From contig JACQRB010000023.1 in assembly GCA_016206685.1 (NCBI GenBank), forward strand, positions 29,287 to 93,286: a stretch of 64,000 nucleotides of DNA, given 5' to 3'. The number at the start of each line of letters is the position of its first letter. Position 1 is the stretch's first letter. The notes beneath the pieces were generated by a model, which worked only from the letters and a program-made list of their open reading frames with translations, was not told the DNA's origin and did not search any database. Source of the DNA: Candidatus Omnitrophota bacterium. GTDB lineage: Bacteria; Omnitrophota; Gorgyraeia; Aquiviventales; Aquiviventaceae. The position numbers were made by a program, and so were the translations under genes. This document shows, one piece after another, positions 1-63,429 of this stretch.

Positions 1-266
1 CTGGCGTCCTCGCCGGCATCGGCGATATCGATCGTTGCCGGGAAGCGCTGTGAGGCGATGAAGTCCCGGATCGCCTCCGCCCGAAAGCCCGCGCACAACA
101 CAAACTCGCGAAACTGCTTGCCCAGATAGAATTCGATGATGTGCTGAAGGATCGGCTTGCCGTTGAGCGGCACCAAGGGCTTGGGCAGATCAGTGGGAAG
201 CGGCTGCAAGCGGCTGCCCCGTCCCCCGCACAAAATGACGAGTGGGGGCGGATGGGTTGTGGTCAT
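1..266 (-). CDS. sugar-1-phosphate nucleotidyltransferase, N-terminal fragment (glucose-1-phosphate cytidylyl/thymidylyltransferase family); the gene continues past the window start
   Basis: Manual minus-strand translation from the ATG at 266..264 gives MTTTHPPPLVILCGGRGSRLQPLPTDLPKPLVPLNGKPILQHIIEFYLGKQFREFVLCAGFRAE... This carries the G-G-x-G-(S/T)-R-L pyrophosphorylase loop and the KP(L/M)V motif of RfbF/RmlA-type enzymes. It is absent from the ORF track because it is truncated by the window edge. Confidence 0.55.
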   Translation of the reverse strand, partial: MTTTHPPPLVILCGGRGSRLQPLPTDLPKPLVPLNGKPILQHIIEFYLGKQFREFVLCAGFRAEAIRDFIASQRFPATIDIADAGEDA

Positions 267-1203
267 CTGATCTCTCCCGTACGATGAAGACCGGGCGACC
301 CTTGGTTTGATCATACACCCGGCCGATGTACTCTCCGAGGACTCCGATGGCAACCAGTTGGAGGCTCCCCAGGAACAGAATAGCGACCGTGAGCGTGGCC
401 CACCCCGGTGGCCACGGCAGATGGTGAGCGATGCGCAAGAGATCCATCACCCCCAGGCTAAACACAAACAGCATGTACAGCAACGCCAGCCCCGCGGTCA
501 GTGCCCCGATCAGCCCAACGATCCGAAGCGGATAGCGCGAGAAGGCAAACAATCCATCCAACGCAAACGCCACCAAGTGTCGATACGAGAACTTCGAGAC
601 GCTACGAAGGCGATCTTCCACATCGTAGAGGACCCCACGTTGTCGGAAGCCCACCCACTTCACCTGCCCCCGCAAAAATTTGTGATACTCCGGAATCTGC
701 AAGATCACCTCGGCCACCTTTCGGTCCAGCAGGCGAAAGTCCGAGAGCCCAAAATCAAGCTCCAGCCCGGAGAGCTTTGAGATGCCCCAGTAGAACAGTT
801 TCACCATAAGCAGCCGTGGCCATGGGACCCGGGCGTTACGCTTGGTGGTGTACACCACCTCAGCCCCGTCTTGCCACAGCGCGATCAGTTGGGGCAAGAG
901 CGCGGGGGGATGCTGCAGATCCGCGTCCATCGTGATGATCGCGTCTCCTCGGCACACCGACATCCCGGCAAACAGCGCGTTCTGATGTCCGAAGTTCCTG
1001 GAGAGGGAGAGGTAGCGGATCTTGGGGTCCTCGGCCCGGAGCCGTTTGATGACCTCCAAGGACTCATCGGTGCTGCCGTTATCAACGAACACCATCTCGT
1101 AGTCAACCTGGGCCTGCCGGCAGGCGTCCCGAACCTCCGTCGAGAGAGCGGTCAGGTTCTCGGCTTCGTTCCACACGGGAAACACGATTGAGACGATGCG
1201 CAT
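190..1203 (-). CDS. GT2 polyprenyl-phosphate sugar glycosyltransferase (ArnC/GtrB/DPM1-like) with C-terminal TM helices
   Basis: 337 aa ORF. N-terminal sequence VSIVFPVWNEAENL...VFVDNGSTDES...DADLQHPP shows GT2 DxD-type motifs. The C-terminal hydrophobic segments are typical of Und-P-sugar synthases. Confidence 0.75.
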   Translation of the reverse strand: MRIVSIVFPVWNEAENLTALSTEVRDACRQAQVDYEMVFVDNGSTDESLEVIKRLRAEDPKIRYLSLSRNFGHQNALFAGMSVCRGDAIITMDADLQHPPALLPQLIALWQDGAEVVYTTKRNARVPWPRLLMVKLFYWGISKLSGLELDFGLSDFRLLDRKVAEVILQIPEYHKFLRGQVKWVGFRQRGVLYDVEDRLRSVSKFSYRHLVAFALDGLFAFSRYPLRIVGLIGALTAGLALLYMLFVFSLGVMDLLRIAHHLPWPPGWATLTVAILFLGSLQLVAIGVLGEYIGRVYDQTKGRPVFIVRERSDDHNPSAPTRHFVRGTGQPLAAASH

Positions 1204-1212
1204 CTCACCCCC

Positions 1213-2271
1213 TCATGCTGGTGTCGCGTCCAGCAGGCCTGGGCTATTGGCACACGGTTCGCCGCCGTGGGCGGGAAAGCGAGGAGGCCATGCTCCCATG
1301 CGCTGAAGGATCTGCTGGGAGGCCGGCCATCTCCGGTCCAGCGCCAAGAGATCCACGATCCGTCGCTCCGTTCCCGCTTCCGGTGCCAGCGGCTCGGAGG
1401 CCCCGTAGAGAAAGCACTCGATCCCGAATCGCGAGAGATAACGGATCACCTCCCCGCGCTGTTCCCGCCAGACCTCAATGACCATCAGCCGAATGGACTG
1501 TTTGGCCAGCAGCCCTTCCGCCGAATACAGCACGTCCAGCTCGGCTCCCTCCACATCTATCTTGAGGATGCAGGGCCCGTTGACGAGCTCATCCAGCCGC
1601 CGGCAGGCGACGGTCACCGTCGGACGAAAGGCCGGATGGCGCGCGCAATAGGTCTCCGCGCGAATTTGCCGCGGGCCCGACCGGAATTCTTCCAGCGGCC
1701 GCAGCCCGCCACCGCCATCATTCAACGGATTGCGGAAATACGCCGCCGACCGGTTCCTGCTGGCGATGGCACAGGCCGGCACGTCGATCCGTTCCAGCCC
1801 GTTCAGAAGGAGATGAGCGCACAGAGCCCGGTGATTGTCCGGATCCGGCTCCACGGCCAGGACCCGTTTGGACGGATACGCCTGAGCGATCGTCATGGCG
1901 TACCAGCCGAGGTGGGCACCGACATCCACGAAGCAATCCGCGGACGGCATCCCGGCCGCGATGAGCCCAAGCCATTCCGCATCATACCGGCCCGCGGTGC
2001 GGAAGTGCCACAGCTGCGTGGTCTGACAGAGGTTGAGCTCCAAACGGAGGCATTTCGAAGAGTCCACGACATTGCGATACCGCACGCTGACGCGCCACGA
2101 TTGCCGCAGGCGGCGCAACACACCCAAAATGAGATGATGACAGTAGGCGGCGGCGCCGAGCGGTCGTCGCAGGATCTTTTCGCACGCGCGCCACGGATAA
2201 AAGATGCCGCCGGCAATCGCCCGGGCCAGCATCTGGCGCAGGAGATTGCTCATCCCGTTCAGCGTGGTCAT
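1213..2271 (-). CDS. FkbM-family SAM-dependent methyltransferase
   Basis: 352 aa. FDVGAHLGWY...LAVEPDPDNH...KIDVEGAELDVL matches the Methyltransf_21/FkbM pattern. Confidence 0.6.
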   Translation of the reverse strand: MTTLNGMSNLLRQMLARAIAGGIFYPWRACEKILRRPLGAAAYCHHLILGVLRRLRQSWRVSVRYRNVVDSSKCLRLELNLCQTTQLWHFRTAGRYDAEWLGLIAAGMPSADCFVDVGAHLGWYAMTIAQAYPSKRVLAVEPDPDNHRALCAHLLLNGLERIDVPACAIASRNRSAAYFRNPLNDGGGGLRPLEEFRSGPRQIRAETYCARHPAFRPTVTVACRRLDELVNGPCILKIDVEGAELDVLYSAEGLLAKQSIRLMVIEVWREQRGEVIRYLSRFGIECFLYGASEPLAPEAGTERRIVDLLALDRRWPASQQILQRMGAWPPRFPAHGGEPCANSPGLLDATPA

Positions 2272-4094
2272 CCCGCCACCGGAACCGTCAACTGCGTGAA
2301 CGCCCCCCGCCGGCCTCGCAACTGCTCCGGCGGCCCCTGTTCCACCGCACGGCCCTGATTCAGCACCACCACCCAGCCGGCCGAGGCCACCATGGTCTCT
2401 CCATGGGCGACCAGGATGACGGTGCGATGCCTGGTGGCGGTGGCGATGGCCTGCTGGACCAGCTGTTCTGACACGGCATCCAACGCGCTGGTCGCCTCAT
2501 CTAACACCAGCAGGTCCGGATCCCCCAAGACCGCGCGGGCGATGGCCAGGCGTTGTTGCTGGCCACCGGACAGCGTCGTCCCGCGCTCCCCCAGGATCGT
2601 CTCATAGCCGTGGGGCAACTGGCGAATGAACTCATCAGCGAGGGCGATGGTGGCGGCCTGGATCACCTGCTGACGCGAATAGTCGCGCCGCCCGATCAGG
2701 ATGTTCTCCACCACCGTCCCGCGGAAGATGAAGGGCTCCTGCGCCATGAACCCGATCCGCCGCAGCCAGCCGTTCCGGTCGTACGCCTGCAGCGGTGTCC
2801 CATCCACCAGGATGCAGCCCGCCGACGGCTCCAGCAGCCCCAACACCAGATTGAGCACGGTGGTCTTCCCTGAGCCCGATGGCCCGACGATGGCCGTGCA
2901 CAGACCCTTGCGAAACGCCACGCTCAGGCCCCGCAGCACGGGCGGCCGGCCTGGATACGCGAATGACACGCCGTCCAGGACCACCCCGTCCCGCAGATGA
3001 TCGAACCGACGCTGACCGTGCGGCACGGCAACCACGGGGATCGTCAGCGCCTGCCCAACGCGTTCGGCGTTGGGCAGGGCCTCATGGATCTCCATTCGCA
3101 GCCGTCCAAGACCCGACAGCGATGGCACGAGCTGGAACAACCCTACGGCAAATAACCCGGTGACCGGCAACGCCGACGTCATATGCGTCGGGGACCAGGC
3201 GCTCAACAGCCCCACCGAGACCAGCAGCAGGAGCACGATGGCCAACTCAATGATCGGCCGGGGGATGGCCAGCCACAGATGGAATCGGGCCAGCAACGTC
3301 GTATACCGTCGCGTCTGCTCACGGAAGCGCGAGAGCCATACCTCCTTGGTGCAGAAAATCGTCAGGTGTCGCATGCCCGTCAGCAATTCGTGCAGCAGCG
3401 TCATCTGCTCCGCATTGGCCTCCGCCCGTCCTTTCCCGCTGGTATAGGCGATCCGCAAAGATAGCGCATGCAGGAGCCCCATCACCCCCGCTGTCACGAC
3501 GCTCAGCACCATGGTCGGCACGGGGAACGCCACCAGAAGCACGACGGTAATCGCCGCCACCTTGAGCCACTCCATGATCCATTGGGGGATTTTCCGCACG
3601 AGCAATGCGACGCGCGTTGGAGCGACCGTGCAATCAAACAGCAGCGTGCCTTGCTTCTGTTCCGACAGCTGCGCGGGGGATGCGCCGGCATAGCGTGCCA
3701 GCACAGAGTTTTCCACATCCCACAGCACGCGCCCGCTCAACCGGGCGATGAGCCATTCCCGCAGCAGCACCACCCCCGCCCTGCAGATCATGACCGTCGC
3801 CAGCAGCACCATCGCACCAGGGAGGACGCCTCCCACCGGCAGGCGTTGCGCCAGCGAGACCACCCATCCCAATACACCGGTCACGCGACTCAGCCCCTCC
3901 GGATGCAGCACCACTTGAAACACGGGAAAGAAGGCGACCAAGCTCACGCTCTCGAGCACCGTCGCCACCGCCATGGCGACCACCACCCCGCCGAACAGCA
4001 ACGGATGCCCCCGAATGCATGCGGCCAGCGTGCTCCAAGCCGGAGAGCGCTCCCACCACCCTGAACGCCGGGGCCGCAGCGGCAGATCGGTCAT
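2268..4094 (-). CDS. ABC exporter, fused permease-ATPase (MsbA-like type I exporter)
   Basis: 608 aa. The N-terminal half is hydrophobic. The C-terminal half has Walker A GPSGSGKTT, the ABC signature LSGGQQQRLAIARA and Walker B LLVLDEATSALD. It has an ATGA overlap with the downstream gene at 2268-2271. Confidence 0.85.
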   Translation of the reverse strand: MTDLPLRPRRSGWWERSPAWSTLAACIRGHPLLFGGVVVAMAVATVLESVSLVAFFPVFQVVLHPEGLSRVTGVLGWVVSLAQRLPVGGVLPGAMVLLATVMICRAGVVLLREWLIARLSGRVLWDVENSVLARYAGASPAQLSEQKQGTLLFDCTVAPTRVALLVRKIPQWIMEWLKVAAITVVLLVAFPVPTMVLSVVTAGVMGLLHALSLRIAYTSGKGRAEANAEQMTLLHELLTGMRHLTIFCTKEVWLSRFREQTRRYTTLLARFHLWLAIPRPIIELAIVLLLLVSVGLLSAWSPTHMTSALPVTGLFAVGLFQLVPSLSGLGRLRMEIHEALPNAERVGQALTIPVVAVPHGQRRFDHLRDGVVLDGVSFAYPGRPPVLRGLSVAFRKGLCTAIVGPSGSGKTTVLNLVLGLLEPSAGCILVDGTPLQAYDRNGWLRRIGFMAQEPFIFRGTVVENILIGRRDYSRQQVIQAATIALADEFIRQLPHGYETILGERGTTLSGGQQQRLAIARAVLGDPDLLVLDEATSALDAVSEQLVQQAIATATRHRTVILVAHGETMVASAGWVVVLNQGRAVEQGPPEQLRGRRGAFTQLTVPVAG

Positions 4095-8666: not shown

Positions 8667-8673
<7 letters not shown>
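7822..8673 (-). CDS. HisF-like imidazole glycerol phosphate synthase cyclase subunit homologue (WbuZ-type, LPS/glycan amidotransfer)
   Basis: Internal start MLKTRLIPCILLKNGLIVRS...ELIYLDITRDG...IPVIACGGAGT matches the HisF N-terminus and the (beta/alpha)8 phosphate-binding motifs. The track ORF carries an approximately 35 aa spurious extension. Confidence 0.75.
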
Positions 8674-9289
<616 letters not shown>

Positions 9290-9293
<4 letters not shown>

Positions 9294-10447
9294 CGGGCCA
9301 CGGCCTCGGGGTGTTGATCCCAAATGTTGTCTTTCGCCCATCGGCCATCGGCATCCTTGCGCCACACGCGCGGGTCGCGGAAGGTGTCGGCGATGCGGTC
9401 GAACTCCTCTTCGGTCATGCCGACGTACTCCAGCCATCGCTTCAGATCCCGCGGCTTCACATGGTCGTACTTCCTGACCATTTCAATGCCTTCCTCGCGC
9501 ATCATGTAGCCGGCTCGGATGTCCTTGCAGGCGTGGTCCGTCGCGCGTCCGTAGCCGAACTTGATGTATTTCAGGTAATCATGCGCCCCGTTCTCATGCA
9601 TGTCGTCGAGATTGGAGAACTTCCGATACGTACGATCAAACGGCTCCGGGGACGGCTCCCAGCCATACCGCTCCATCACCAGCTTCACATGCCGGTTGGC
9701 GTCCCATTCCACGTAGTTGCCCAGGAAGATTCCCCGCACGCCGACGCGCGCAATCTCTTGATCCGAAGGATAGCGGGCCCAGAGCATGTCCTGCGGCGTC
9801 AAACCGTCCGATGTCCCCGCCTCCACCAGATCCGTCCAATCAAAGCCGCGCTTCACGTATTCGTACACGAACCGGGCGGTCAGCTCCACCATGTCATACA
9901 GGGAATACATCCCGGCTAAATCCACCTGGCCGTGCTCCCCGTAAAACACGAGCGGAATCTGATGCGTCACGGCGATCTGAACCGGAACGGTGTAGATGCC
10001 GCAGTGGTTGTGCCAGTTCATATCCCCCATGAGCGTAAAGCCCAGACGGTTCAGCGTGACGAGCGTCTTCACGCTTGGCGAGCAGATCACGTGATCCACC
10101 CCGAAGACCTCCCGCATCCGCATGAGGTTGCGCCATCCCACCTCCAGAAAGTTGTTGCCGTTGTACGTGACCAACAACGGGTTCATCCCAAACTGCTCTT
10201 TGATGAGGTGAGTCTGGTAATAACTGTCCTTGCCGCCGCTGACGGCAATGATGCAGTCGTAGTTGCTGCCGTCCTTGGAGCGATACTCCTCCAGGAGTTC
10301 GCGCAGCATCTGTTCGCGCCGCCCCCAGTCGATCTGTGGCTTCTGCTCATGCACGCGGCATCCACTGCAGACCCCACGGTCATCGAACGTCAGCGGCAAT
10401 GCTGACGCCGACGGATAGACGCACCGCGTGCAGTAGCGCATCGCCAT
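9290..10447 (-). CDS. N-acetyl sugar amidotransferase (WbuX/PseA-like PP-loop ATP pyrophosphatase with N-terminal zinc ribbon)
   Basis: 385 aa. The N-terminal sequence CTRCVYPS...CSGCRVHE is a zinc ribbon. The PP-loop SGGKDS sits in IIAVSGGKDSYYQ. This enzyme family co-occurs with HisH/HisF homologues. Confidence 0.7.
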
Positions 10448-12415: not shown

Positions 12416-12418
12416 AGT

Positions 12419-14611: not shown

Positions 14612-15432
14612 CCCCGGGCTCCGAATGGCAGCCCCGTCCCTACGCGCTGCGCCAGCTCCCGATACGCCGCGACGAGACGTCCCGCGTCTCGATAGTATTC
14701 GATCGTCACGAACTCCACCGGCGCGCGCGCGCAGAGCCACTCGAGCAGCTCCCATTCCCGCGGCCCCGGTGGCTCGTGCAGGTCCTCCCAGATCCCGCTG
14801 AGCGGGCCGCACGCGCTGATCTGCACTTCGCGCACGCGATGGAGCGGCAAGGCCTCCAGGTACGCCTCGGGTGTCGTTCCCAGATTTTCGGCGGAAATCC
14901 TGGCGTGCGCCACATCCAGCAGCAGCTCCGCGTCGATCGCCTCCAGCACCCGGCCCATGAAGCCGGGGTCGCAGACCATGCCGTAGGCATCGCTGGGGGT
15001 TGGAAAATAGTTGAGGTTCTCTACGCGCAGCGTTCCCGGAAAACGCGCGCGCAACCACGCCGCGTGGCGGCGGGCCAAGGCGATGTACTCCGGCTCGCCC
15101 AGGCGAGGGCCGCGAAGGTGGTAGCGGGGATAGCCGTTGGGCGAGGCGACCGTCTCCACGTCGTGGACGGCCGGACCGAAGTCGCAGGCGACACTCTGGA
15201 CCGAACGGCGCGCCATCAAGCGCCACAGCCCGAGCTCCTCAAGCTGCGCGCCAAAGGCCTCATCAATGATGTTGACCGGGGTGTCCATGAACGCCGTGGC
15301 GTTCGGGAAGCACGGCTCCGGTCGGTACCGCTTATATGTGACCGCGGCAATCAGGGGCGCCAAGGCATCAGCCGCCGCCAACGCCGCGTCGCTGGAGGCG
15401 ACGCACAGTCGTGGAACGACGTCGCTTCTCAT
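14608..15432 (-). CDS. DUF692/MNIO-like TIM-barrel protein (xylose-isomerase-like superfamily), function unknown in this context
   Basis: 274 aa from internal Met MRSDVV... LRVENLNYFPTP...LLLDVAHARISAENLGTTPEAYLEALPLHRVREVQISAC...ELLEWLCARAPV.EFVTIEY resembles the UPF0276/DUF692 pattern (ENVSxY...LLLDVNNVYV...DP..YLD.LP..RV.E.H.AG), recalled from memory. It is ATGA-coupled on both sides, at 14608-14611 and 15429-15432. Confidence 0.5.
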   Translation of the reverse strand: MRSDVVPRLCVASSDAALAAADALAPLIAAVTYKRYRPEPCFPNATAFMDTPVNIIDEAFGAQLEELGLWRLMARRSVQSVACDFGPAVHDVETVASPNGYPRYHLRGPRLGEPEYIALARRHAAWLRARFPGTLRVENLNYFPTPSDAYGMVCDPGFMGRVLEAIDAELLLDVAHARISAENLGTTPEAYLEALPLHRVREVQISACGPLSGIWEDLHEPPGPREWELLEWLCARAPVEFVTIEYYRDAGRLVAAYRELAQRVGTGLPFGARG

Positions 15433-16466: not shown

Positions 16467-16467
16467 G

Positions 16468-38323: not shown

Positions 38324-38328
38324 GATCG

Positions 38329-52487: not shown

Positions 52488-53186
52488 CTACCTCTCCTGG
52501 GGGATGCTTGCAGGCAACCGGACAGGAGCCTGTGCCACCATCACCAGATAATCACAGGCACCGCTTGACATGGGATAGCATCTCACTTGATCAAAGACAG
52601 CCTGGACTATGTGGACGTAGTGTTGCTCAGCTCGAATATGGTCACCCAGATCGAATTGATGAACCAGACTGCCAATAAGATTGTATCTGCTGCGCGTCGG
52701 TACATCTTCCCACATGATCAAACGACCTATGCCAGGTTTCAGAACCCGCGCGGCTTCAGTCAAAATGGCTATCGCATCCTGATCTTCAAGGTGGTGGATG
52801 ACCCCGCTAATCACCACCGCATCAAACGATTGTGATGTAAAATCCAGTGCTCGCCCATCCATGACGAGAAAGCGATGAGTGGGGTGTTTCTTTCTTGCTC
52901 GCTTGATATACCCCTGGTTGATATCGATGCCCACATAAGAAGTCGGCCTGAACATGTTGGCGAACACCCCAGTCCCACAACCAAGATCCAGGACATCCCC
53001 AATATGCTGCAGTCCCTCTTGCTTCAGCACAATCCGCTCGCCATTAAAACCAGCTTCCAGAATCCAACGCAGCATATCAAATAAAACAGGACGAGCCGCA
53101 AGCCTGCTGACGAGGGACTGAAGGAGAAGCTTCATAATCTGTGGAGACTCGGCAGCATCTGTGTGAGATCCCCTCGGTTCAGTCAT
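52488..53186 (-). CDS. class I SAM-dependent methyltransferase (compositionally atypical, probably inserted)
   Basis: VLDLGCGTGVFA (motif I) and VLKPGIGRLIM are present. Third codon positions are visibly AT-richer than in all neighbours. The gene is flanked by the 23-nt imperfect direct repeat. Confidence 0.7.
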   Translation of the reverse strand: MTEPRGSHTDAAESPQIMKLLLQSLVSRLAARPVLFDMLRWILEAGFNGERIVLKQEGLQHIGDVLDLGCGTGVFANMFRPTSYVGIDINQGYIKRARKKHPTHRFLVMDGRALDFTSQSFDAVVISGVIHHLEDQDAIAILTEAARVLKPGIGRLIMWEDVPTRSRYNLIGSLVHQFDLGDHIRAEQHYVHIVQAVFDQVRCYPMSSGACDYLVMVAQAPVRLPASIPQER

Positions 53187-54859
53187 CCTACGAGTTCATA
53201 GATCTTTACATACTCCTCGGTGCCGAGTCCCGGGTCCACATCCGGCCGTTGCCCGCGGAACTCCTGCACCAGCCGACCGGTGTCCCTCACCGCGGTGTAG
53301 TATTGCGCGTGGACCGGATACCGCGCGGGGTCGGCCAGGTACTGTTCCACTTCATCGGTGACCACCACATACCGGACGCCCGCCTGACGATGTTTCGCAA
53401 AGTCAAGATCATCAGGATCAAAATCCTCCCGCCAGGGGTATGGCAGGGGCCACAGATCATAGGCGGCCGGAAGGGACGGGACATACCGCGCCAACCGCTG
53501 CAGGCGAATGCCCTGCCCGATCCCTTTGGCGTGAATCTCTTCGAGCTGCCGATGGATGGACGCCTCGTTGGGCACCAGCGGAACTCCGGCCGCCACGGCC
53601 ACCGGCGTCCCCGAAGGCACATGGCGCTGGATCCATGCGCAGGCTCGAACCGACACCGGCGTCTGAGCCACCTGACGGTCAAACCGGACAATCGCCTGAA
53701 CCGGCAGAGCCACCAACAGGGCCCATCCCGCTGTCATCGCCGTCACGCGGAGAGGGCCCGCCCGAAGCCGGTCGGCGAGCGCGACGCACCAGCGAGCCGC
53801 CACGAGCAGCAACATGGGCACGATGTAGATGAAATACCGCGGCTTGATGATGTCCCAGGTCCCCACATAGCCGATGAAGGTCAGCACCAGACCTGCCAGC
53901 CAGAGGTCTTCGGGCCGGCGTTTCCAGAGGGCGTACGCCAGCCCGATGAGCGAGACGACCGTCAGCGGCGCTCCAATCGCGCTGGGCAGCACCGATGTGA
54001 GGAGGAACCAGTGTCCAGATCCCTGGGCCCGGTACGACGCGAAATGGTACTCGGAGGTCATGAGTTCCCATCGGAGTTTCTGGACGGAGGCCAGGAACGC
54101 CTTCCCATCCAGCAGCGCATAGGGACACCCGAGGAAGAACCCGACGATGATGAGCCCCATCCCGGCCACCAGCTTCGGGGCGAACAGCCGCTCCCGCCAC
54201 GGGGCTCCTGCGCGGGACGTCCGGATCAGGTGCGCCAACCCCAGCACCACGCCGAGCCAAGCGGCGTTGTATTTCGTCGCCGTCGCCAGCCCGATGAGCA
54301 GTCCGGCGAGCCCATAGTGCCACAGCCGTCCCTCCTGGAGCACGCGGACGACCGTCCCAAGCGCCAGGAAGGCAAGCACCATCATCGGAATGTCGGTGTT
54401 GGCGTAGTGCGCCGCCGTCACATGCAGCACCGACACGCTGAGAAACGCCGTCGCCAGCAGCGCGATCGCCGTCCGGTGATAGAGCTGATGGGCCAGCCGG
54501 AAGAACAGCCAGAGTCCCAGCAGCCCCAACCCCAGCACGAAGATCCGACCGATGAGAAAGAACAGCGTCGGGTCCGTGAAAAACAGCCGCTCAAAATCCG
54601 CCACGGACGCAAACACGCCGGCCGCACGGCCGATCATGAACGTCGCCCCATAGAGCCCGAACAGCACATAGGCGAAGAACGGCGGATGCAGAAAGTAGTG
54701 CGGGTTGAGGTCGCCGGTGCCGAACTTCACCGCGTAGAACACCTGCTCTTCTTCGGTCGCGAACCGGCTGAACGGCAGATCGGCCCGCATGCCGTAGGCC
54801 GCGGCCGCGGCGAAGAGGCCCAGCATGCCCGCCAGCGCCCATCGTTGCGCGTGCATCAT
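53183..54859 (-). CDS. GT-C fold membrane glycosyltransferase (GT39/ArnT-like), paralog 3
   Basis: DLPFSRFATEEEQVFYAVKFGTGDLNPHYFLHPP...FTDPTLFFLIGR...ATKYNAAW is paralogous to 40605..42356. It has ATGA overlaps at 53183-53186 and 54856-54859. Confidence 0.75.
   Translation of the reverse strand: MMHAQRWALAGMLGLFAAAAAYGMRADLPFSRFATEEEQVFYAVKFGTGDLNPHYFLHPPFFAYVLFGLYGATFMIGRAAGVFASVADFERLFFTDPTLFFLIGRIFVLGLGLLGLWLFFRLAHQLYHRTAIALLATAFLSVSVLHVTAAHYANTDIPMMVLAFLALGTVVRVLQEGRLWHYGLAGLLIGLATATKYNAAWLGVVLGLAHLIRTSRAGAPWRERLFAPKLVAGMGLIIVGFFLGCPYALLDGKAFLASVQKLRWELMTSEYHFASYRAQGSGHWFLLTSVLPSAIGAPLTVVSLIGLAYALWKRRPEDLWLAGLVLTFIGYVGTWDIIKPRYFIYIVPMLLLVAARWCVALADRLRAGPLRVTAMTAGWALLVALPVQAIVRFDRQVAQTPVSVRACAWIQRHVPSGTPVAVAAGVPLVPNEASIHRQLEEIHAKGIGQGIRLQRLARYVPSLPAAYDLWPLPYPWREDFDPDDLDFAKHRQAGVRYVVVTDEVEQYLADPARYPVHAQYYTAVRDTGRLVQEFRGQRPDVDPGLGTEEYVKIYELVG
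53196..53218. repeat. direct repeat copy A (tcatagatctttacatactcctc) inside the 3' end of GT-C paralog 3
   Basis: Pairs with 52441..52463, with mismatches at 2 of 23 positions. Confidence 0.6.
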
Positions 54860-55578
54860 CCGCCGTTGCCCATCCGCAGTTCGCGCCAGAGGAATTTCAG
54901 AAAGACGATCCCCGTCGGCAGCGACTTCGCCGTGCTCATGCCGCCGATCCGGTCGCTTTCCTGCGTGGGCAGTTCGACGACGCGCATCCGCTGTTTCATC
55001 GCGCGGATCGACATCTGGTACTCGACCACGAAGCCGTCGGCGTCGATACCCATCCCTTCAAATGCCGCCTTCGTCACCCCGCGGTAGCCGTTGATCGTGT
55101 CGGTGACGTACGGACCGCGGTTCCACAACCGGTTGGCGATCCAAGTGAAGGCGCGGTTGGCCCAGGCCCGCAGGGGCAACCGCTTGTCGTCTTCTTCATT
55201 GCGGCTGCCGGGCAGGAAGCGCGAGGCGATGGCCATGTCGTAGCCCTCCTCCAGCTTCGCAAAGAGCCGCACAATGTCGTTCGGGTCTTCGTTCCCATCG
55301 GGGCTGAAGAAGACGAGGTGCTCCCCCTGCGCCGTCGCGACGCCGATTTGAAACGCCTGGCCGCGCCCGCGCCGGCTCTGCCCGACGACGCTGATCCCTC
55401 GGCGGGCCAGAAACTCCACCGTGCCGTCGGTGGACCCGCCGTCCACCGCGAAACATTCATCCACTTCAGCAAGCGGCAACCGGTCGAGCAGCACCTTTAG
55501 CCCGCTGATCTCGTTCAGGGTGAGCAAAATGAGAGAGCGTTTAGCGACGCGCCGTGGAGCTGAGACAGTGGGATTCAT
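54856..55578 (-). CDS. GT2 glycosyltransferase (DPM1-like polyprenol-phosphate sugar synthase)
   Basis: LILLTLNE...FAVDGGSTDGT...FSPDGNEDP are GT2 motifs. Confidence 0.65.
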   Translation of the reverse strand: MNPTVSAPRRVAKRSLILLTLNEISGLKVLLDRLPLAEVDECFAVDGGSTDGTVEFLARRGISVVGQSRRGRGQAFQIGVATAQGEHLVFFSPDGNEDPNDIVRLFAKLEEGYDMAIASRFLPGSRNEEDDKRLPLRAWANRAFTWIANRLWNRGPYVTDTINGYRGVTKAAFEGMGIDADGFVVEYQMSIRAMKQRMRVVELPTQESDRIGGMSTAKSLPTGIVFLKFLWRELRMGNGG

Positions 55579-56530
55579 ACCATGCTAATGTGTGGGTCAG
55601 TCCTTCTTCCAATGAGATCGCGGCGGTGTAGCCGATGAGCCGCTTGGCTTTCGTCGTATTGCACTGGCGCCGAGGCTGGCCCGATGGCCTTGACGGATCG
55701 AACTGAATGGTCACGCGCTTGCCGGAGAGCCGGACGATCATCTCCGCCAGGTCGCGGATGCTCACCTCTTCATCCGTCCCCAGGTTCACGGGGTCTGGCT
55801 GTGGGTATTGCTCGACCAGCTCCATGAGCCCCCGCGCCAGATCCGTGACGTAGACGAAGCTGCGGCTCGCCGTGCCGTCGCCCCACACGGTCAGGGGGTT
55901 CTCCCCGTCCATGAGCCGGTGGATCAGTGAGGCGATCACGTGGGCGTCCGGCGACTCGAAGTGATCGCGCGGGCCGTAGGCGTTGTAGGGTCGGGCAATC
56001 GCGATGCGCATCCCGAATTCCTCGGCATACGTCTGCGCCAAGAGCTCCACCACGCGCTTGGCCCAGCCGTACCCGAAGTTCGTCGGCTCCGGATCGTCGC
56101 GAAAGCCTTCGGTCTCCGGCGTGGGAATGGTGCAGGCACGCGGATAGACGCAGGCGCTGCTGACCATCAGCACGCGCTCGGCCTTGGCTTCGCGGGATGC
56201 CTCCAGCACGTTGAGCGCCAGTTGCACGTTGTCCCGCAGCATCATCGCCGGATGCGCCTGGTTGAACCGCACGCCCGACACCTTCGCGGCCAGGTGCAGC
56301 ACAATCTCCTGATTCTGCAGCGCCCGGCGGCACGGCTCCGCCTGCATGAGATCCACATCCTCAAACTGGATCCGGCTCCAGACCGCCTCCAGATTTCGCC
56401 GCGGCATGGCTCCCGGATGATTCAGCACCGTCACGCGCGCCCCGTGCGCGACCAGCCGCTCCACCAGGTGCGAGCCGACAAATCCCCCGCCCCCGGTCAC
56501 GAGAACCCGTTTACCAGACCAGAACGTCAT
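55541..56530 (-). CDS. GDP-4-keto-6-deoxymannose epimerase/reductase-like SDR (GDP-L-fucose synthase/Rmd family)
   Basis: KRVLVTGGGGFVGSH and YGWAKR are present. It is adjacent to a gmd copy. Confidence 0.6.
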   Translation of the reverse strand: MTFWSGKRVLVTGGGGFVGSHLVERLVAHGARVTVLNHPGAMPRRNLEAVWSRIQFEDVDLMQAEPCRRALQNQEIVLHLAAKVSGVRFNQAHPAMMLRDNVQLALNVLEASREAKAERVLMVSSACVYPRACTIPTPETEGFRDDPEPTNFGYGWAKRVVELLAQTYAEEFGMRIAIARPYNAYGPRDHFESPDAHVIASLIHRLMDGENPLTVWGDGTASRSFVYVTDLARGLMELVEQYPQPDPVNLGTDEEVSIRDLAEMIVRLSGKRVTIQFDPSRPSGQPRRQCNTTKAKRLIGYTAAISLEEGLTHTLAWYESHCLSSTARR

Positions 56531-56537
56531 GCGCGGT

Positions 56538-57557
56538 TCACCCCTTGATTCCCGCGACGTCCGCGGGCGAGACGATGCCTTTCACTGCAGCCATGTCGGC
56601 ATCGACCATCAAACGCACCAGCTCCGTAAACGTCGTCTTGGGCGCCCATCCGAGCTTTCGCTTGGCCTTGGAGGAATCCCCCAGCAAGAGGTCGACCTCA
56701 TTGGGTCGGAAGTAGCGGGAGTCCACCTCGACGTAGGCTTTCCAGTCGAGCCCCTGATACGAGAAGGCCTCCTCCAAGAATTCTCTCACGCTGTGGGACT
56801 CGCCCGTGGCCACCACGTAGTCATCCGGCTCATCCTGTTGCAGCATGCGCCACATCGCCTCGACGTACTCCTTTGCGTAGCCCCAGTCGCGTTTGGTATC
56901 GAGATTGCCCAGGTAGATCTTCGACTGCCGTCCAGCCAGAATGTTGGCCAACCCCCACGTGATTTTCCGCGTGACGAACGTCAGGCCCCGTCGGGGTGAC
57001 TCATGGTTGAACAGGATGCCGTTGCACGCGAAGATCCGATAGCTCTCTCGATAGTTCACCGTCGTCCAATAGCTGAACACTTTCGCCGTCCCATAGGGAC
57101 TGCAGGGACAAAACGGCGTGGTCTCCCGCTGAGGCGCCTCCAGGGCCCGTCCGAACATCTCGCTGCTCGACGCTTGGTAGAATTTCGTCTTGAGGCCGCT
57201 CTCTCGAATGGCGTCGAGCAGGCGTAGCGTCCCCAGGGCGACCACATTGGCTGTGTATTCCGGCATGTCGAAGCTCACCCGCACGTGGCTCTGGGCGCCG
57301 AGGTTGTACACCTCGTCCGGGTGGATCGTCTTCATCAACTGGTTGACGCCGCTGGAATCGCTCAAGTCCCCGTAGTGCAAGATGAGCCGGCGGTTGGATT
57401 CGTGCGGATCCTGAAAGATGTGGCTGATGCGCTGCGTGTTGATGGAGCTGGAGCGCCGGATAATGCCGTGCACCTCATAGCCTTTCTCCAGCAACAGCTC
57501 CGCGAGGTAACTCCCGTCTTGTCCGGTAATGCCAGTGATCAGGGCGCGTTTGGGCAT
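56538..57557 (-). CDS. gmd: GDP-mannose 4,6-dehydratase (Gmd), copy 2
   Basis: [31 protein letters not shown]...ASSSEMFG is near-identical in its motifs to copy 1. Confidence 0.85.
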
Positions 57558-57564
57558 GGGCTCC

Positions 57565-58701
57565 TCAATAGGTCACACGGTGAAAGACGTCCACGAGATA
57601 GGCCACGTCGTCCGGCGTCAGCCGCTGGTGACAGCCGATGTAGAACCCGCAGGCGTTGATCCGTCTGGCATTGGGAAACCGGTCCTCCACGTCGCCGAGG
57701 ATCCGGCGGACAATGGGCTGATTCGTCAGCGGCATCATGTCACGCGTTTCCACGCCCCAGTCGTTGAGGTGGCGCACCAGCCGGATCTTCAGCTCGGGGG
57801 TCGCGCAGACGATTGGAAACATCATGAAGGTGTTGTTCGCGGGATCCGGTAATTGCAGCGCCGGCAGATCGCGCAAGCCTTCGATGAGGACGCGGGCGTT
57901 GGCGACCCGGCACTGCAGGATCTGCTCGATGCGCTCCATCTGCCCGAGGCCAAGCGCGGCATTGAGGTCGCCCAGCTTGAACGAAAATCCCACGTCGTTG
58001 AACGTAAAGCGGATCGAGTCGTCCAAGGCGTCCACGCGCAGGCCGGCGTAGAGGTCCGAGCCGCACGCCCGACCGTGGTTGCACAACCGCTTGACGTCCT
58101 CATTCAATTCCGGGCGGTTGGTCAGCACCATCCCGCCGACGGCCGTCGTGATCGTGTGGGCCACATAGAAGCTGAGACACACCAGATCCCCATAGCCGAT
58201 CCCTGGCGCGCCGAGGCTCTCGCAGGCGTCTTCCACGACCGGCACGGATTGCGGCGGTATCTGCACCGACTTGCCGAACATGTGCACGGGTATCGCCACG
58301 TCGTAGCGCGCGGACGGCTCCAACAGGCCCAGATTAATGTTGTACGTCTTCGGATCAACATCGCACAGCACCACCTCCAGCCCTGCGTTCCAGATCGCAT
58401 GGAGGGTCGAGATATAGGTGATCGCCGGCGCCAGCACCAGGCGAACCTTGGGGTGGCGCAGCTTCAGCGCTTCCAGGGACAGGTGCAGCGCCGATTGCCC
58501 GCTGTTGCAGAACGTCCCGAAGCGCATCTGGTGGAAGACGGCCACCCTCTCCTCGAACTGCTGGGTCTTTTCCCCTGGGGAAATCTTGCCGGAGCGCAAG
58601 CAGTCGGTCACCAACTCGATCTCGCGCGGCGTGATGTCCGCCACCCCCAACGAGATGAACCGCCGGGCGGATGAGAGTGTGGCGTGTGAGGTCTGTGCCA
58701 T
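57565..58701 (-). CDS. DegT-family aminotransferase, GDP-perosamine synthase-like (Per/RfbE)
   Basis: 378 aa DegT fold ([22 protein letters not shown]) directly downstream of gmd. The Per assignment is inferred from context. Confidence 0.55.
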
Positions 58702-58711: not shown

Positions 58712-60214
58712 TTACTTTGCCGCCAGCGCCACAGAGGGGGCTGCCACCGACGCGCGGGGCGCCGCCCCTCGAACCTGCTGCCAGTCCTGCGGCGTCACGA
58801 TCCGCAGCACCCACAGCAGGACGACATAGCCTAACAGCCAGACGCCGCGGGCGGCTGCCGGCAACGGGACGCCCCGCGCCATGCCATAGAGCACCGCCGC
58901 TGCCCCCACTGTCAGGGCCACCTGGCCGGCCCGCACCGGCATCGGATACCGCCGCTGCGCGGCGACCCATGTGGCGGCAGCAGCCAGCGCGTAGGCGGCG
59001 ATCGTCGCCCAGGCCGCGCCCCACATGCCCCACCGCGGAATCGTCCACCAATTCAACGCCGCGTTGAGCAGGGCCGCGCTGCCCAGCACGACCGGCTGCA
59101 CCCACACGTCGCGCGTCACCAGCAATCCGGAGAGCATGAAACTGTAGACGGCGTAGCTCAGGCAGGCCAGCACGATCAACGGGACGATGCCGGCGCCCAC
59201 CCCATACGTGTTGGGAGCCAGCACGGCCATCAGCTCGCCCGCCCAGAGACTGATCGCCAGCCCCAGCAGGCACAACCCGGCCAAGGCGTAGCGGAAGACC
59301 GTCGCAAACGCCTGCGGAGCGTGCGGCGCGCGCGCGATCGAGAACATCAACGGGATCCAGGCCACCATGAACGCCTTCACCGCCAGCAGCGGGATTTGTC
59401 CGAGCTTGTAGCCAACGGTGTAGACGGCCACCTGCTCCAGCGTCGCCAACAGGCCGAGGAAGTAACGGTCCGAGCAATCGATCACCCACGTGAACAGCAG
59501 CGCCGGGAAAAACGGCATCCCGAAGGCCAGCATCGCCTTCAGCTCGCTCCAGGACGCCTGCGGGGAATAGTCGCGCCGGTTCAGCCACGCCGCCAGCCCG
59601 AGGATGCCCAGCCCTGCCAGCAACTGGCCCTCGAACACGCCGGCCAGTCCGCGCTGGCGCAGCACCACGAGCTCGTACGTCGCAGCGATCAGCGCCAGGC
59701 TGCGCAGCGCTGAGACGGCCGCGAACGCCCGCACGCGGCCGCGCAGGCGCAGGGCGGCGATCGGCACGTCGGCCCAGGACGTCACCAACGTGCTCAGCAG
59801 CATCAGCGGCACCGCCCCGCCCGCCACATGGGCCTGCCACGCAGCCGGCACAAGCCGCGGCGCCAGCCACAGCCACACGATCGTCCAGAGCGCCGCGTGC
59901 CCGGCGAGGAATCCCCACGCCGTGGACACCACCGCCTGCCGCCGTTGCACCTGGTCGGCGTCATGCTCGAAGTACCGCCGGAAGAGCGCATTGATCATGC
60001 CCAGATCGTAGAGGAACGCCAGCACGCCTGAGGTCACCAGGAGCAGCGCCAGCACGCCGAACGCCTCGGCTGAGAGATGCCGCGTGTAGAGCGGCAACAG
60101 CAGCAGGTTGGTCAGCGGCATCAACCCCACGGCGATGCCGTAGACGAGCGTATGCGTCGCAGCCTTCTGGAGCACCTTCGTAGTCTCAGATGATGCGGAT
60201 GAGATCATCGCCAT
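58712..60214 (-). CDS. MOP-superfamily oligosaccharide flippase (Wzx-like polysaccharide biosynthesis protein)
   Basis: 500 aa with approximately 14 hydrophobic segments and the typical Wzx layout. Confidence 0.6.
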   Translation of the reverse strand: MAMISSASSETTKVLQKAATHTLVYGIAVGLMPLTNLLLLPLYTRHLSAEAFGVLALLLVTSGVLAFLYDLGMINALFRRYFEHDADQVQRRQAVVSTAWGFLAGHAALWTIVWLWLAPRLVPAAWQAHVAGGAVPLMLLSTLVTSWADVPIAALRLRGRVRAFAAVSALRSLALIAATYELVVLRQRGLAGVFEGQLLAGLGILGLAAWLNRRDYSPQASWSELKAMLAFGMPFFPALLFTWVIDCSDRYFLGLLATLEQVAVYTVGYKLGQIPLLAVKAFMVAWIPLMFSIARAPHAPQAFATVFRYALAGLCLLGLAISLWAGELMAVLAPNTYGVGAGIVPLIVLACLSYAVYSFMLSGLLVTRDVWVQPVVLGSAALLNAALNWWTIPRWGMWGAAWATIAAYALAAAATWVAAQRRYPMPVRAGQVALTVGAAAVLYGMARGVPLPAAARGVWLLGYVVLLWVLRIVTPQDWQQVRGAAPRASVAAPSVALAAK

Positions 60215-61428: not shown

Positions 61429-62080
61429 CGGCGAGTGCTGGTTTGCGTTTTACGGTCCGCGCGGGCCTGCCCCACGCAGAGGTGTGATCCGGCACGTCGT
61501 GCAGCACCAGGCTGCCGGCGCCGATCGTCGCGTATTCGCCGATGGTGCACTTGGCGATCATGCTCCCCATGCCGATGAAGGCATGGGCGCGGATCTTCAC
61601 GTAGCCGGCAGTCATCACGCCGGTGGTAATGTAGACGTCCTCGTCAATCTCGTTGTCATGTTCGAGAATCACGCCGCTCCAGAGCACCCCGTAGTCGCCG
61701 ATGCGCGTGCCGGCGTTGACGACGGAGCCGGCGCTGATGAACACCCCGCGGCCCAGGCGCACGTCCGGATTGACCATCGCGCTCGCATGGACCGCCGAGG
61801 CCCACTCGCAACCGCTCTCGTTGATCAACGCGATCAGCTCCTGCCGATCCTGAAAGAAGCGGTAGCCCACCCCCAGCGCCACATGGCTGATGCGGTGGCG
61901 TCGGATGATGGACGGCAGATCGCGGCAGCGTCCAAAAATCGGCCGCCCGCAAAAGTCGTCTCGGCGGCCGTCATCGAGGAACCCGACGACCGTCTTGGCC
62001 AATCCGTGCGAGGCCAGCGCCCCGTAGAACGCCCGGCCCAACCCTGCTGCTCCAAGAATCGCGATACGTGACGGCTTCAT
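61421..62080 (-). CDS. NeuD/PglD-family sugar N/O-acyltransferase (left-handed beta-helix hexapeptide repeat)
   Basis: The internal start MKPSRIAILGAAGLGRAF is an N-terminal Rossmann-like domain. Hexapeptide repeats follow (VRLGRGVFISAGSVVNAGTRIGDYGVL...). It has an ATGA overlap at 62077-62080. Confidence 0.7.
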   Translation of the reverse strand: MKPSRIAILGAAGLGRAFYGALASHGLAKTVVGFLDDGRRDDFCGRPIFGRCRDLPSIIRRHRISHVALGVGYRFFQDRQELIALINESGCEWASAVHASAMVNPDVRLGRGVFISAGSVVNAGTRIGDYGVLWSGVILEHDNEIDEDVYITTGVMTAGYVKIRAHAFIGMGSMIAKCTIGEYATIGAGSLVLHDVPDHTSAWGRPARTVKRKPALADV

Positions 62081-63429
62081 GGAACAGCGACCCGAGACCG
62101 TCGCCAAGCCACCAGACCGGCTGCAGCGAACAGGAGATAGAGTGGAATCACAGGGACTGTCTGGCGCCCATAGCCAAAGAGCAGCGCATGGACGCCGTTG
62201 AAGTACACGATGGCCAGACCCAGGGGCCACCACGCCCGCCATCGGTGCCGCTGCCGCCACATCCCAATGCCCGCCAACACCAGCAACGGATAGGCCAAGA
62301 GACGAATCACTCCGCGGACGGCGGAGAGCCCCGCCTGACCGTACGGCCGGCGTGCGGCCCACTCAACCACCCGGGGGTGATTGAGCGCAGGCAGGTAGCT
62401 GAAGGCCGTCAACTTGATCCACTCCACCGGGGTCTGCAGCAGGTATCTGACCGGGTGACGCCGGATGAGTCGCCAGGCCTCTTGTCCCATGACATGGTCG
62501 GCTTCCACCTGACTCAACCCGTCTGCCATCAGGCGCCGGCGCCGCTCAAGGGCCAGATGAGAATCGCGCAGCACCACCTCCTGAGGACTCTCCGAGGCTG
62601 ACGGAAACACCGCCTGCCCGAGATACTCTGAAAAGTTATAGAGGCCGGCCTGAAGGATCTGTTGAGGAGTATCGTGCACTTTATTCGCCCGCATCCAGAG
62701 GATCAAGTCGCCGCGGAGGCTGACCTGCGGAATCTGAAACACCCGCTGGTTGCGCAGGATCCACGGGGCGACCGCCAGGCCGCAGCCGGCGAGCAGAACA
62801 ACTCCCCGGATCATCCGATGCCGCAGAGGACGTCCCTGAGCGCGAACCGCGATGACGCCGACCACCGCCAGGAGCGCCAACGGCCCCATCACAGCTTTGC
62901 ACAAGACGGCGCCCCCCAAGACGGCGCCCGCGAGGGCCCACCAGAACAGGCGGGACCGGTGCCAGGCGAGACACAGCCCCCCGACCGCTGCCATCAGCAA
63001 CGCGGTCGCCAGTGTTTCGGTCAAGAGACAGGTTGGATAGTTCGCCAGCGTTGGAAAACAGGCCGTCGCCACTCCTGCCCACCACCCCACCGCTTCGTGA
63101 AACAGCCACCGCCCCATGAAGTACGTCATCACGCTGGTCACCGCAAACAAGGGGATTTGGAACCACGGCACCAGATCGGGACGATGGCCGATGGTCCGGT
63201 ATAGGATCGCCAACCAGGCAGGATAGAGGGGTTCCCGAAACATCGTCGGGGTAAACGGGGCGCTCGTCTCCAACGAAAACCCGCGTCCCAGCGCGAGATT
63301 CCACCCCAAGGCATCGTACTGGAGCGCATCGCCATCAGCGCCCAGAGGCTGGTGACCCGCCAGGACGAACGCGGCGCTCGTCAGGGTGGCCAGGAGCACG
63401 ACCAACAGCCACGTTCGATTCGAACTCAT
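62077..63429 (-). CDS. GT-C fold membrane glycosyltransferase (ArnT/PMT_2-like)
   Basis: The internal start is MSSNRTWLLVVLLA. FREPLYPAWLAI resembles the ArnT/PMT_2 first-loop motif. The protein is polytopic. It has an ATGA overlap at 63426-63429. Confidence 0.65.
   Translation of the reverse strand: MSSNRTWLLVVLLATLTSAAFVLAGHQPLGADGDALQYDALGWNLALGRGFSLETSAPFTPTMFREPLYPAWLAILYRTIGHRPDLVPWFQIPLFAVTSVMTYFMGRWLFHEAVGWWAGVATACFPTLANYPTCLLTETLATALLMAAVGGLCLAWHRSRLFWWALAGAVLGGAVLCKAVMGPLALLAVVGVIAVRAQGRPLRHRMIRGVVLLAGCGLAVAPWILRNQRVFQIPQVSLRGDLILWMRANKVHDTPQQILQAGLYNFSEYLGQAVFPSASESPQEVVLRDSHLALERRRRLMADGLSQVEADHVMGQEAWRLIRRHPVRYLLQTPVEWIKLTAFSYLPALNHPRVVEWAARRPYGQAGLSAVRGVIRLLAYPLLVLAGIGMWRQRHRWRAWWPLGLAIVYFNGVHALLFGYGRQTVPVIPLYLLFAAAGLVAWRRSRVAVP

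Follow-up and report, generated by a model that had tools for sequence, protein, structure and literature searches.

A putative multi-module extracytoplasmic glycosylation locus in an Omnitrophota bacterium

The stretch of DNA analyzed here, 64,000 nucleotides of a Candidatus Omnitrophota bacterium (assembly GCA_016206685.1, contig JACQRB010000023.1, positions 29,287 to 93,286; hereafter the window), probably codes for an extracytoplasmic glycosylation system of the 'three-component' type, made up of several modules, that would serve a complex surface glycan of this organism. Three-component systems of this logic are established in bacteria (reviewed in PMC8035078 and extended in PMC11127046). 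In the window, genes for GT2-type synthases, a small flippase and GT-C transferases are co-located with 4-nt overlaps, and their coupling is apparent from gene fusions and from synteny in related loci. The gene content, the family and fold assignments, a conserved acidic loop residue, the fusions and the synteny were established by computational comparison. A further-reaching proposal, which we put forward only tentatively and regard as rather doubtful, is that the glycan is not just decorated but for the most part put together at the outer face of the inner membrane, from at least six polyprenyl-phosphate-linked rare sugars and by dedicated GT2/GT-C pairs.

The window is a single unbroken array of 58 genes (after correction of one open reading frame, ORF), with every convincing gene on the minus strand, to which all window coordinates below refer. 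Most neighboring genes overlap by 4 nt or are spaced by a few bases, the largest intergenic gap is 51 bp, and the GC fraction is even throughout (0.59-0.68). The encoded proteins correspond to MBI4322975 to MBI4323029 (locus tags HY596_) on the 109,125-bp contig. An initial annotation made from the sequence had listed 13 putative glycosylation genes, and all 13 coordinates that it gave are the low-coordinate ends of minus-strand ORFs; the starts were less secure, as those of GTC_1 and GTC_5 probably lie near 31754 and 63429, respectively, inside the longest ORFs, the latter in agreement with a 450-amino-acid (aa) gene call on contig L002. The occurrence of 13 such genes in one co-directional array rules out a chance ORF pattern. 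The same annotation spoke of one operon, which is plausible. The sole sizeable gap (25092-25144) contains a weak terminator-like hairpin at 25140-25116 that may separate two transcription units. When the two largest gaps were scanned for terminators and promoters, the number of matches did not exceed that in shuffled sequence. Short Logan contigs from the same samples, which add about 3.7 kb upstream and 1 kb downstream, show that glycan genes run on beyond both window ends, with a further C-methyltransferase, an epimerase and a sixth GT2 upstream and a nucleotidyltransferase and an epimerase downstream. The locus thus spans more than 68 kb, a figure that includes neither of its ends. It is present in runs SRR12113383 and SRR12113385 of the source groundwater.

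Synthases and transferases of the array

Five Dpm1/ArnC-like GT2 enzymes had been proposed, and all five pass PF00535 (5e-29 to 1e-13), with polyprenyl-phosphate glycosyltransferases as their best NCBIfam families (PgfS, ArnC, PpgS, a haloarchaeal dolichyl-phosphate (Dol-P)-hexose transferase and AglJ). The best PDB matches of GT2_a, GT2_b, GT2_d and GT2_e, the four included in the PDB search, are likewise polyprenyl-phosphate glycosyltransferases. Two of the enzymes are of the GtrB/ArnC type with two C-terminal transmembrane (TM) helices each. GT2_a (190..1203, 337 aa; helices 228-246 and 271-289) passes PF00535 at 5e-29, matches PgfS (9e-74) and ArnC (7e-46) over the full length, has GtrB 5EKP (sll0501) as its top PDB match (5e-71) and carries a DAD motif. 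GT2_c (34423..35391, 322 aa; helices 231-249 and 262-280; PF00535 7e-22) matches PgfS at 4e-44 and ArnC at 2e-31 and carries a DVD motif. No TM helix is predicted in the other three, which are short and soluble like Dpm1 or PpgS. GT2_b (33604..34413, 269 aa; PF00535 2e-28) is Dpm1/ArnC-like, with matches to ArnC (5e-23), PpgS (8e-14) and the Dol-P-hexose transferase (1e-13), a DGD motif and ArnC 9HWJ as its top PDB match (5e-25). GT2_d (46810..47613, 267 aa; PF00535 1e-13) is DPMS/PpgS-like, with matches to PpgS (3e-12) and the Dol-P-hexose transferase (5e-12), a DD motif and Pyrococcus furiosus DPMS 5MLZ on top in the PDB (2e-10). GT2_e (54856..55578, 240 aa; PF00535 3e-14) is AglJ/DPMS-like; it matches AglJ at 1e-25 and DPMS 5MLZ at 3e-7 over residues 13-234, and contains a PDGNED stretch that is less canonical than DxD. 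The sixth enzyme, GT2_f (262 aa), lies just beyond coordinate 64000, outside the window, on the short contigs. Pairwise identity among the five window GT2s is only 21-32%, which indicates old, distinct enzymes rather than recent copies. The six mutually distant GT2s of the GtrB/ArnC/DPMS class would each load one sugar onto polyprenyl phosphate.

The transferases that would use these donors fall into two groups. For the five enzymes initially annotated as GT-C, PF13231 (PMT_2) is passed by GTC_1, GTC_3, GTC_4 and GTC_5, and GTC_2 was placed through its relatives and an AlphaFold2 model. GTC_1 (30357..31754, about 465 aa; PF13231 3e-7, 31.1 bits against a cut-off of 26.1) is a PMT_2-type protein that does not carry a large soluble domain and has a conserved Asp in an outward loop. 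GTC_5 (62077..63429, 450 aa; PF13231 1e-9) has a conserved Asp after TM helix 1 (TM1), and a C-methyltransferase and GT2_f lie ahead of it just outside the window. The other three, GTC_2, GTC_3 and GTC_4, carry an ArnT-like C-terminal soluble domain. GTC_3 (40605..42356, 583 aa) matches both PF13231 (2e-16) and PF02366 (6e-6), and GTC_4 (53183..54859, 558 aa; PF13231 1e-10), which is 38% identical to GTC_3, overlaps with its start the stop of GT2_e by 4 nt. GTC_2 (38770..40608, 612 aa) is a divergent GT-C with a soluble alpha/beta domain; its own sequence gave no match against Pfam and NCBIfam, and it is a paralog of GTC_3 and GTC_4 at 23% identity with relatives on which phmmer searches found PF02366/PF13231. 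Its AlphaFold2 model, built from a 32-sequence alignment, reached a mean pLDDT of 86 and a pTM of 0.91, and the 43 best PDB matches of the model are all GT-C enzymes, among them STT3, AglB, PglB, ALG9, ALG12, Pmt4, ArnT, DPY19, PimE, AftA and Emb. A single-sequence PDB search with GTC_3 returned spurious matches only, and the GT-C family profile A1 reached only yeast Pmt1 (6P25, E = 0.002).

An acidic motif in the first outward loop had been chosen beforehand as the check on the GT-C assignments, and it is present: a Glu right after TM1 is invariant in 32 sequences of the GTC_2/3/4 family, where it sits in a consensus 'DE' (D42-E43 in GTC_2, E60 in GTC_3). In a three-sequence alignment of GTC_5, GTC_1 and an ortholog, a shared Asp follows the N-terminal TM segment(s). 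The initial annotation had also named an O-antigen ligase or polymerase as the alternative identity for these proteins, of which no sign was found; Wzy or ligase identity was rejected, as neither the candidates nor any other window protein matches PF04932 (Wzy_C) and the candidates contain no WWDYG motif. Oligosaccharyltransferase (OST) identity of the GT-Cs is not favored, since none of them contains WWD[YWF]G or W[WY]D or matches PF02516 (STT3).

The second group consists of the two GT87 genes of the initial annotation, both well above the PF09594 cut-off of 25 bits (82.5 and 105.3 bits). GT87_1 (49891..51201, about 418-436 aa) matches PF09594 at 5e-23, and GT87_2 (51152..52444, 430 aa) at 5e-30. 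In a small alignment of GT87_2 with two orthologs, a conserved Asp follows TM1 within 'Y-x-D-[YF]', a region in which GT87_1 aligns ambiguously. A single-sequence PDB search with GT87_2 gave no match, PimE structures included. Together, the five PMT_2-type GT-Cs and the two GT87s would add sugars singly to an acceptor at the outer face of the inner membrane.

Gene fusions and recurring blocks

Four other metagenomic loci (L006/L007, L008, L039 and L040) hold orthologs from the same blocks at 40-85% protein identity. In two proteins, P0006 and P0007 (847 and 843 aa), a DPMS-like GT2 is fused to the N-terminus of a GTC_3 ortholog. The N-terminus of GT-C enzymes is cytoplasmic in the solved structures of ArnT, PglB and Pmt; the fusion is thus topologically coherent and ties donor synthesis to donor use. 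The assumption of the initial annotation that the GT2s supply donors to the GT-Cs therefore gains support, both from these fusions and from blocks of GT2, GT-C and sugar-tailoring genes in the four loci. The GT2::GT-C genes are followed, in L008 (730-5026) and in L040 (10001-14298), by a GT2 fused to an S-adenosylmethionine (SAM)-dependent methyltransferase (576 and 591 aa), which suggests that methylation is coupled to lipid-linked sugar synthesis. These GT2::methyltransferase fusions lie directly upstream of GT87_2 orthologs, and across L006, L008 and L040 the gene directly ahead of the GT87_2 ortholog (44-51% identical) encodes either a GT2 or such a fusion.

Several blocks recur. The fullest form across loci is GTC_3-GTC_2-cupin-RmlD::C-methyltransferase-dehydratase-GT2_c-GT2_b-Epi32-MT31-GTC_1-GT4, of which the part from GTC_2 to Epi32 is found in L006 and L039, and L039 adds MT31-GTC_1-GT4. 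The GT2_c ortholog of L039 is 69% identical; its GTC_1 ortholog (50% identical) adjoins MT31, and a weaker match to GTC_1 is present in L008. The block DegT-Gmd-Epi-GT2_e-GTC_4 is intact in L006, with the GT2_e and GTC_4 orthologs 77% and 63% identical, respectively. L040 keeps DegT-Gmd-Epi without a separate GT2_e, and the next GT-C there bears a fused GT2. The block GT2_d-UDPGDH-GFO-GT87_1 recurs in L039, where a GT2_d ortholog (67% identical) lies near a GT87_1 ortholog (49% identical), and a GT2 beside a GTC_5-like gene forms another recurring block. Modules also come and go between loci, L040 for instance having no GTC_5 between the C-methyltransferase and the acetyltransferase, and this gain and loss fits a variable surface-glycan cassette.

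The GTC_3 family is rare; its matches in species-representative genomes are all metagenome-assembled genomes (MAGs), and the scan of those genomes found no close relative, the best match being 37% identical. Elusimicrobia groundwater MAGs (L020 and L021) have smaller loci in which two GT-Cs go with two or three DPMS-like GT2s, so multi-module versions are not confined to Omnitrophota. In another locus, L041, a GTC_4-like gene (44% identity), a C-methyltransferase, GT2s, a Wzx-like gene and a second PMT_2 gene stand beside Wza, Wzc-like and Wzy_C genes, and this context is the main hint of a polysaccharide acceptor. Pairs of split transketolase-like genes, of the kind used for two-carbon branches on keto-sugars, adjoin GT2/GT-C modules in L039 (5753-7545) and L041 (19207-20882) and are absent from the window.

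Flippases, acceptor and alternative readings

The initial annotation of an ArnE/F-like flippase subunit with four TM helices holds at the level of similarity. The 133-aa protein (42323..42724), with about four predicted TM helices, falls below the equivalog cut-offs in its matches to ArnF (6e-13, 49 bits; cut-off 99) and ArnE (1e-12, 48 bits; cut-off 92), and its gene stands alone rather than in a pair; a 57% identical ortholog lies beside MT31 and GTC_1 in L008. From its NCBIfam matches and predicted topology it is a candidate small multidrug resistance (SMR)-type flippase for polyprenyl-phosphate sugars. Two further genes may take part in transport, namely a Wzx-type flippase of the MOP superfamily (58712..60214; PF13440 2e-12, PF01943 6e-11; 57% identical ortholog in L040) and a candidate flippase or exporter of the MsbA/HepA type (2268..4094), in which the transmembrane and nucleotide-binding domains of an ATP-binding cassette (ABC) transporter are fused (ABC_membrane and ABC_tran; HepA 2e-90 and MsbA 8e-83, both below cut-off). 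Both genes needed for the initially suggested Wzx- and ABC-dependent export are present, but the ABC protein is a fused half-transporter and not Wzm/Wzt. The ArnE/F-like protein would flip the lipid-linked monosaccharides, probably assisted by Wzx, the ABC protein or both.

The same similarities raise the question of whether the GT-Cs might decorate lipid A or the core in an Arn-type modification of lipopolysaccharide, with donors from ArnC-like enzymes that are flipped by ArnE/F. ArnC, ArnE and ArnF are among the best family matches, ArnC structures are the top PDB matches of GT2_b, and ArnT is among the fold matches, GTC_2, GTC_3 and GTC_4 combining a TM bundle with a C-terminal soluble domain as ArnT does. 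However, all Arn matches are far below the equivalog cut-offs, the window scans found neither an ArnA-type formyltransferase/decarboxylase nor ArnD, and the number and diversity of modules, together with genes for GDP- and dTDP-type 6-deoxy and C-methyl sugars, misfit the chemistry of 4-amino-4-deoxyarabinose (Ara4N). We regard this explanation as very improbable.

For the three-component locus that we favor, the acceptor would most likely be a polysaccharide, the core of which would be made by three GT4 enzymes with a contribution from a nonulosonic-acid pathway and which would exit via Wzx or the ABC protein. Two of the GT4 genes, encoding cytoplasmic GT-B glycosyltransferases, lie at 28059..30424 and the third at 60205-61428. 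An alternative acceptor is protein, with GT2-fed PMT/PMT_2 enzymes modifying Ser/Thr-rich envelope or surface proteins as in actinobacterial Pmt and streptococcal PgfS/PgfM systems (a precedent is described in PMC12041528). This is consistent with the PF02366 (PMT) scores, which are 26.4 bits for GTC_3 (cut-off 22.7) and 22.2 bits for GTC_4, with the Pmt1 match of the family profile, with the consensus DE motif and with PgfS as the best family match of GT2_a. It is also consistent with a membrane-anchored DUF4330 protein inside the cluster (26103-27050), which has one N-terminal TM helix and a low-complexity stretch rich in Pro, Ala and Ser; a role of this protein as a scaffold, or even as a glycosylation target, is speculative. 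Seven different GT-Cs and many rare-sugar pathways, however, exceed any known system of protein O-glycosylation, no target protein was identified, and the presence of Wzx, the three GT4s and nonulosonic-acid genes in one array speaks for a polysaccharide, as does the Wza/Wzc/Wzy setting of the relative in L041. Protein O-glycosylation is therefore an unlikely, if reasonable, alternative.

The initial annotation had noted that the window lacks a priming phosphoglycosyltransferase, Wzy and Wzz, and no match to any of them was found across all ORFs scanned; PF02397, PF00953, PF04932 and PF02706 have no match among them, Wzx alone represents the Wzx/Wzy pathway, and no OST was found in the window. 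This absence of Wzy, ligase and OST would be accounted for if one or more of GTC_2, GTC_3 and GTC_4 acted en bloc on polyprenyl-diphosphate oligosaccharides in their place, a role with which their C-terminal soluble domain is compatible. By E-value, the best fold matches of GTC_2 are indeed the oligosaccharyltransferases STT3, AglB and PglB (8e-9 to 1e-4). Target-normalized TM-scores, on the other hand, favor Pmt4, ALG12 and ALG9 (0.57-0.59) over OSTs (0.35-0.47), sequence-level matches are to PMT/PMT_2 and not to STT3, the WWDYG-type motif is lacking, and a monosaccharide-phosphate donor is suggested by the GT2 that is fused to a GTC_3 ortholog. En-bloc action of these enzymes appears improbable.

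Returning to the three-component reading, several points weigh against it. The OST matches of GTC_2 mean that some GT-C members may carry out en-bloc transfer, and no priming transferase, polymerase, ligase or outer-membrane exporter that would define the acceptor pathway was found in the window. There is a single dedicated small flippase for at least six donors, the seven GT-C genes outnumber the six GT2 genes, and no GT2 of this genome is an obvious partner of GTC_3. Every GT2 match to a named polyprenyl-phosphate synthase falls below the NCBIfam equivalog cut-off, which makes these assignments class-level and not specific to an enzyme, and some of the three short GT2s, whose matches range only from 1e-7 to 1e-25, may instead be Leloir transferases of the ordinary kind. 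The synthase and transferase activities are predictions from sequence and model comparison, and the L041 context stems from a distant relative. The lipid-linked donors, the sugar handled by each GT2/GT-C pair, the flippase assignments and the acceptor are predictions as well.

Sugar-tailoring modules and comparison with known systems

The donors themselves would be made in the cytoplasm by clustered tailoring enzymes that yield rare nucleotide sugars of the 6-deoxy, amino and C-methyl-branched types. The enzymes in question are two Gmd, RmlB- and RmlD-like proteins, aminotransferases, an N-acetyltransferase, C-methyltransferases (at least three in the window, and one or more immediately beyond its upstream end), some nine further SAM methyltransferases and a radical SAM enzyme. 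A nucleoside-diphosphate-hexose block between GTC_2 and GT2_c (35388..38751), retained beside GTC_2 and GT2_c/GT2_b in L006 and L039, consists of an RmlB-like 4,6-dehydratase, an RmlD::C-methyltransferase fusion and a cupin epimerase/isomerase, from which we infer a C-methyl-branched 6-deoxyhexose. A GDP-sugar block upstream of GT2_e (55541..58701), retained in L006 and L040, consists of an aminotransferase (PseC-like, 2e-45), a GDP-mannose 4,6-dehydratase (Gmd, 534 bits against a cut-off of 415) and an Fcl-like epimerase/reductase (4e-58). Together with the second Gmd gene (411 bits) and a NeuD/PglB-family acetyltransferase, this block would lead to GDP-6-deoxyhexoses and an N-acetylated 4-amino sugar. 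To our knowledge, donors of the predicted kinds, for example C-methyl-branched deoxysugars linked to polyprenyl phosphate, have not been described.

A nonulosonic-acid/acetamidino-sugar module (9290..23630) contains NeuB, a PseC-like aminotransferase, a cytidylyltransferase-GNAT fusion, AsnB-like, WbuX and PFTS-motif proteins, dehydratases and epimerases, and is linked to HisH/HisF-like genes (7822-9437). Within 7822-12415, WbuX (1e-103, above cut-off) and the HisH-like, HisF-like and AsnB-like genes stand together adjoining the nonulosonic-acid genes; WbuX, HisH/HisF-like and AsnB-like genes form a set tied to acetamidino-sugar formation. The NeuB module probably makes a nonulosonic acid, acetamidino group included. 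A gene for a DUF692/MbnB-like TIM-barrel protein of about 274 aa (14608-15432) lies between NeuB and the cytidylyltransferase-GNAT gene. It forms part of a 365-aa ORF (14608-15705) that was considered spurious, a view that was dropped as codon-position GC shows the 14608-15432 part to be real (GC at third codon positions 0.82 against 0.52). In the 935-aa ORF of the cytidylyltransferase-GNAT gene (12419-15226), about 205 N-terminal codons are non-coding, and the true start is near 14611 ('MTMRTVAIIQ'). Also inside the module, a 673-aa soluble protein (19580-21601) has no Pfam match and reaches the 'PFTS motif' family TIGR04417 at 4e-27, just below cut-off, which makes it a candidate nonulosonic-acid transferase.

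Among the remaining genes, a transglutaminase-like gene and a MarR-type winged-helix regulator (23627-25144) break up the run of sugar genes. A radical SAM/SPASM enzyme (6732-7895) has SAM methyltransferases and a NanM-like sugar O-methyltransferase (4091-5236) on its flanks, and L040 has a B12-binding radical SAM gene in its place; the radical SAM genes of both loci suggest unusual methylation chemistry on sugars.

That more than 68 kb would be devoted to a single surface glycan suggests that this glycan matters greatly, be it for cell-cell contact or for evasion of phages or predators. No description of a locus of this type in Omnitrophota was found in literature searches, and variable polysaccharide cassettes in Omnitrophota are noted in a recent preprint (10.64898/2026.06.07.730766). 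The conserved blocks of GT2, GT-C and sugar-pathway genes and the natural GT2::GT-C fusions offer concrete donor-transferase pairs for biochemistry and glycoengineering.

Among characterized systems, the Arn pathway (ArnC/ArnE-ArnF/ArnT) resembles the locus in the ArnC matches of GT2_a, GT2_b and GT2_c, the ArnE/F matches of the 133-aa protein and the ArnT architecture of GTC_2, GTC_3 and GTC_4; it differs in that no ArnA, ArnB or ArnD signature was found here, in the presence of one flippase gene instead of an ArnE/ArnF pair, and in scores well below the cut-offs. Streptococcal Pgf (PgfS/PgfM1/PgfM2) and actinobacterial Pmt systems share with the locus the PMT/PMT_2 families of their GT-Cs and the DE-type loop motif, and PgfS is the best family match of both GT2_a and GT2_c, whereas the locus has many more modules and includes polysaccharide genes in the same array. 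A third parallel is the endoplasmic reticulum (ER)-lumenal pathway (ALG3/9/12 and ALG6/8/10 with DPM1/ALG5) and the AglJ/AglR/AglS system of Haloferax, in which a cytoplasmic GT-B/GT-A phase is followed by flipping and by extension through GT-Cs that use Dol-P-sugars. ALG9 and ALG12 are among the GTC_2 fold matches and AglJ is the best family match of GT2_e; the locus, however, is bacterial, contains no OST in the window and has other sugar chemistry.

The likeness to mycobacterial lipomannan/lipoarabinomannan (LM/LAM) or protein O-mannosylation machinery, to which the initial annotation had pointed, holds as an analogy and not as membership. Like the mycobacterial and corynebacterial LM/LAM and phosphatidylinositol mannoside pathways (Ppm1, PimE, MptA-D; GT87), the locus appears to combine multiple GT-C/GT87 enzymes that act extracytoplasmically on polyprenyl-phosphate donors. 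In Actinobacteria these genes are dispersed and draw on one or two donors (polyprenyl-phosphate mannose and decaprenyl-phosphate arabinose), whereas here they are clustered, every one accompanied by a synthase and a sugar pathway of its own, and the host belongs to another phylum, presumably a diderm one. If assembly at the outer face is true, the locus would be a clustered, modular counterpart of mycobacterial LAM synthesis or ER-lumenal elongation outside Actinobacteria, in a small-genome and possibly host-dependent Omnitrophota cell, and would widen the donor repertoire of lipid-monophosphate sugar carriers to C-methyl-branched 6-deoxyhexoses and amino sugars. With about 13 enzymes of lipid-monophosphate-sugar metabolism in one place, such a locus would show that whole heteroglycans can be built extracytoplasmically outside Actinobacteria.

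The closest correspondence is to bacterial three-component systems such as GtrA/GtrB/GtrC, CsbB/GtcA/YfhO, GacI/GacK/GacL and the GT136 system of Citrobacter (PMC11127046, PMC8035078), with which the locus shares the logic of a GT2 synthase, a small or MOP-type flippase and an outer-face GT-C, the diversification of donors by auxiliary epimerases and the occurrence of some GT-Cs with a C-terminal soluble domain, which in PMC11127046 is a carbohydrate-binding domain. The flippase here is ArnE/F-like, in place of GtrA or MATE (multidrug and toxic compound extrusion) proteins, and the predicted donors are 6-deoxy, amino and C-methyl-branched sugars. In bacteria, each known system of this kind attaches a single side-chain sugar and has one set of components, in contrast to the six synthases and seven GT-Cs of this locus, which is an unusually large and modular version of a known mechanism, and whose scale suggests that assembly outside the membrane accounts for much of the glycan and goes beyond a side branch.

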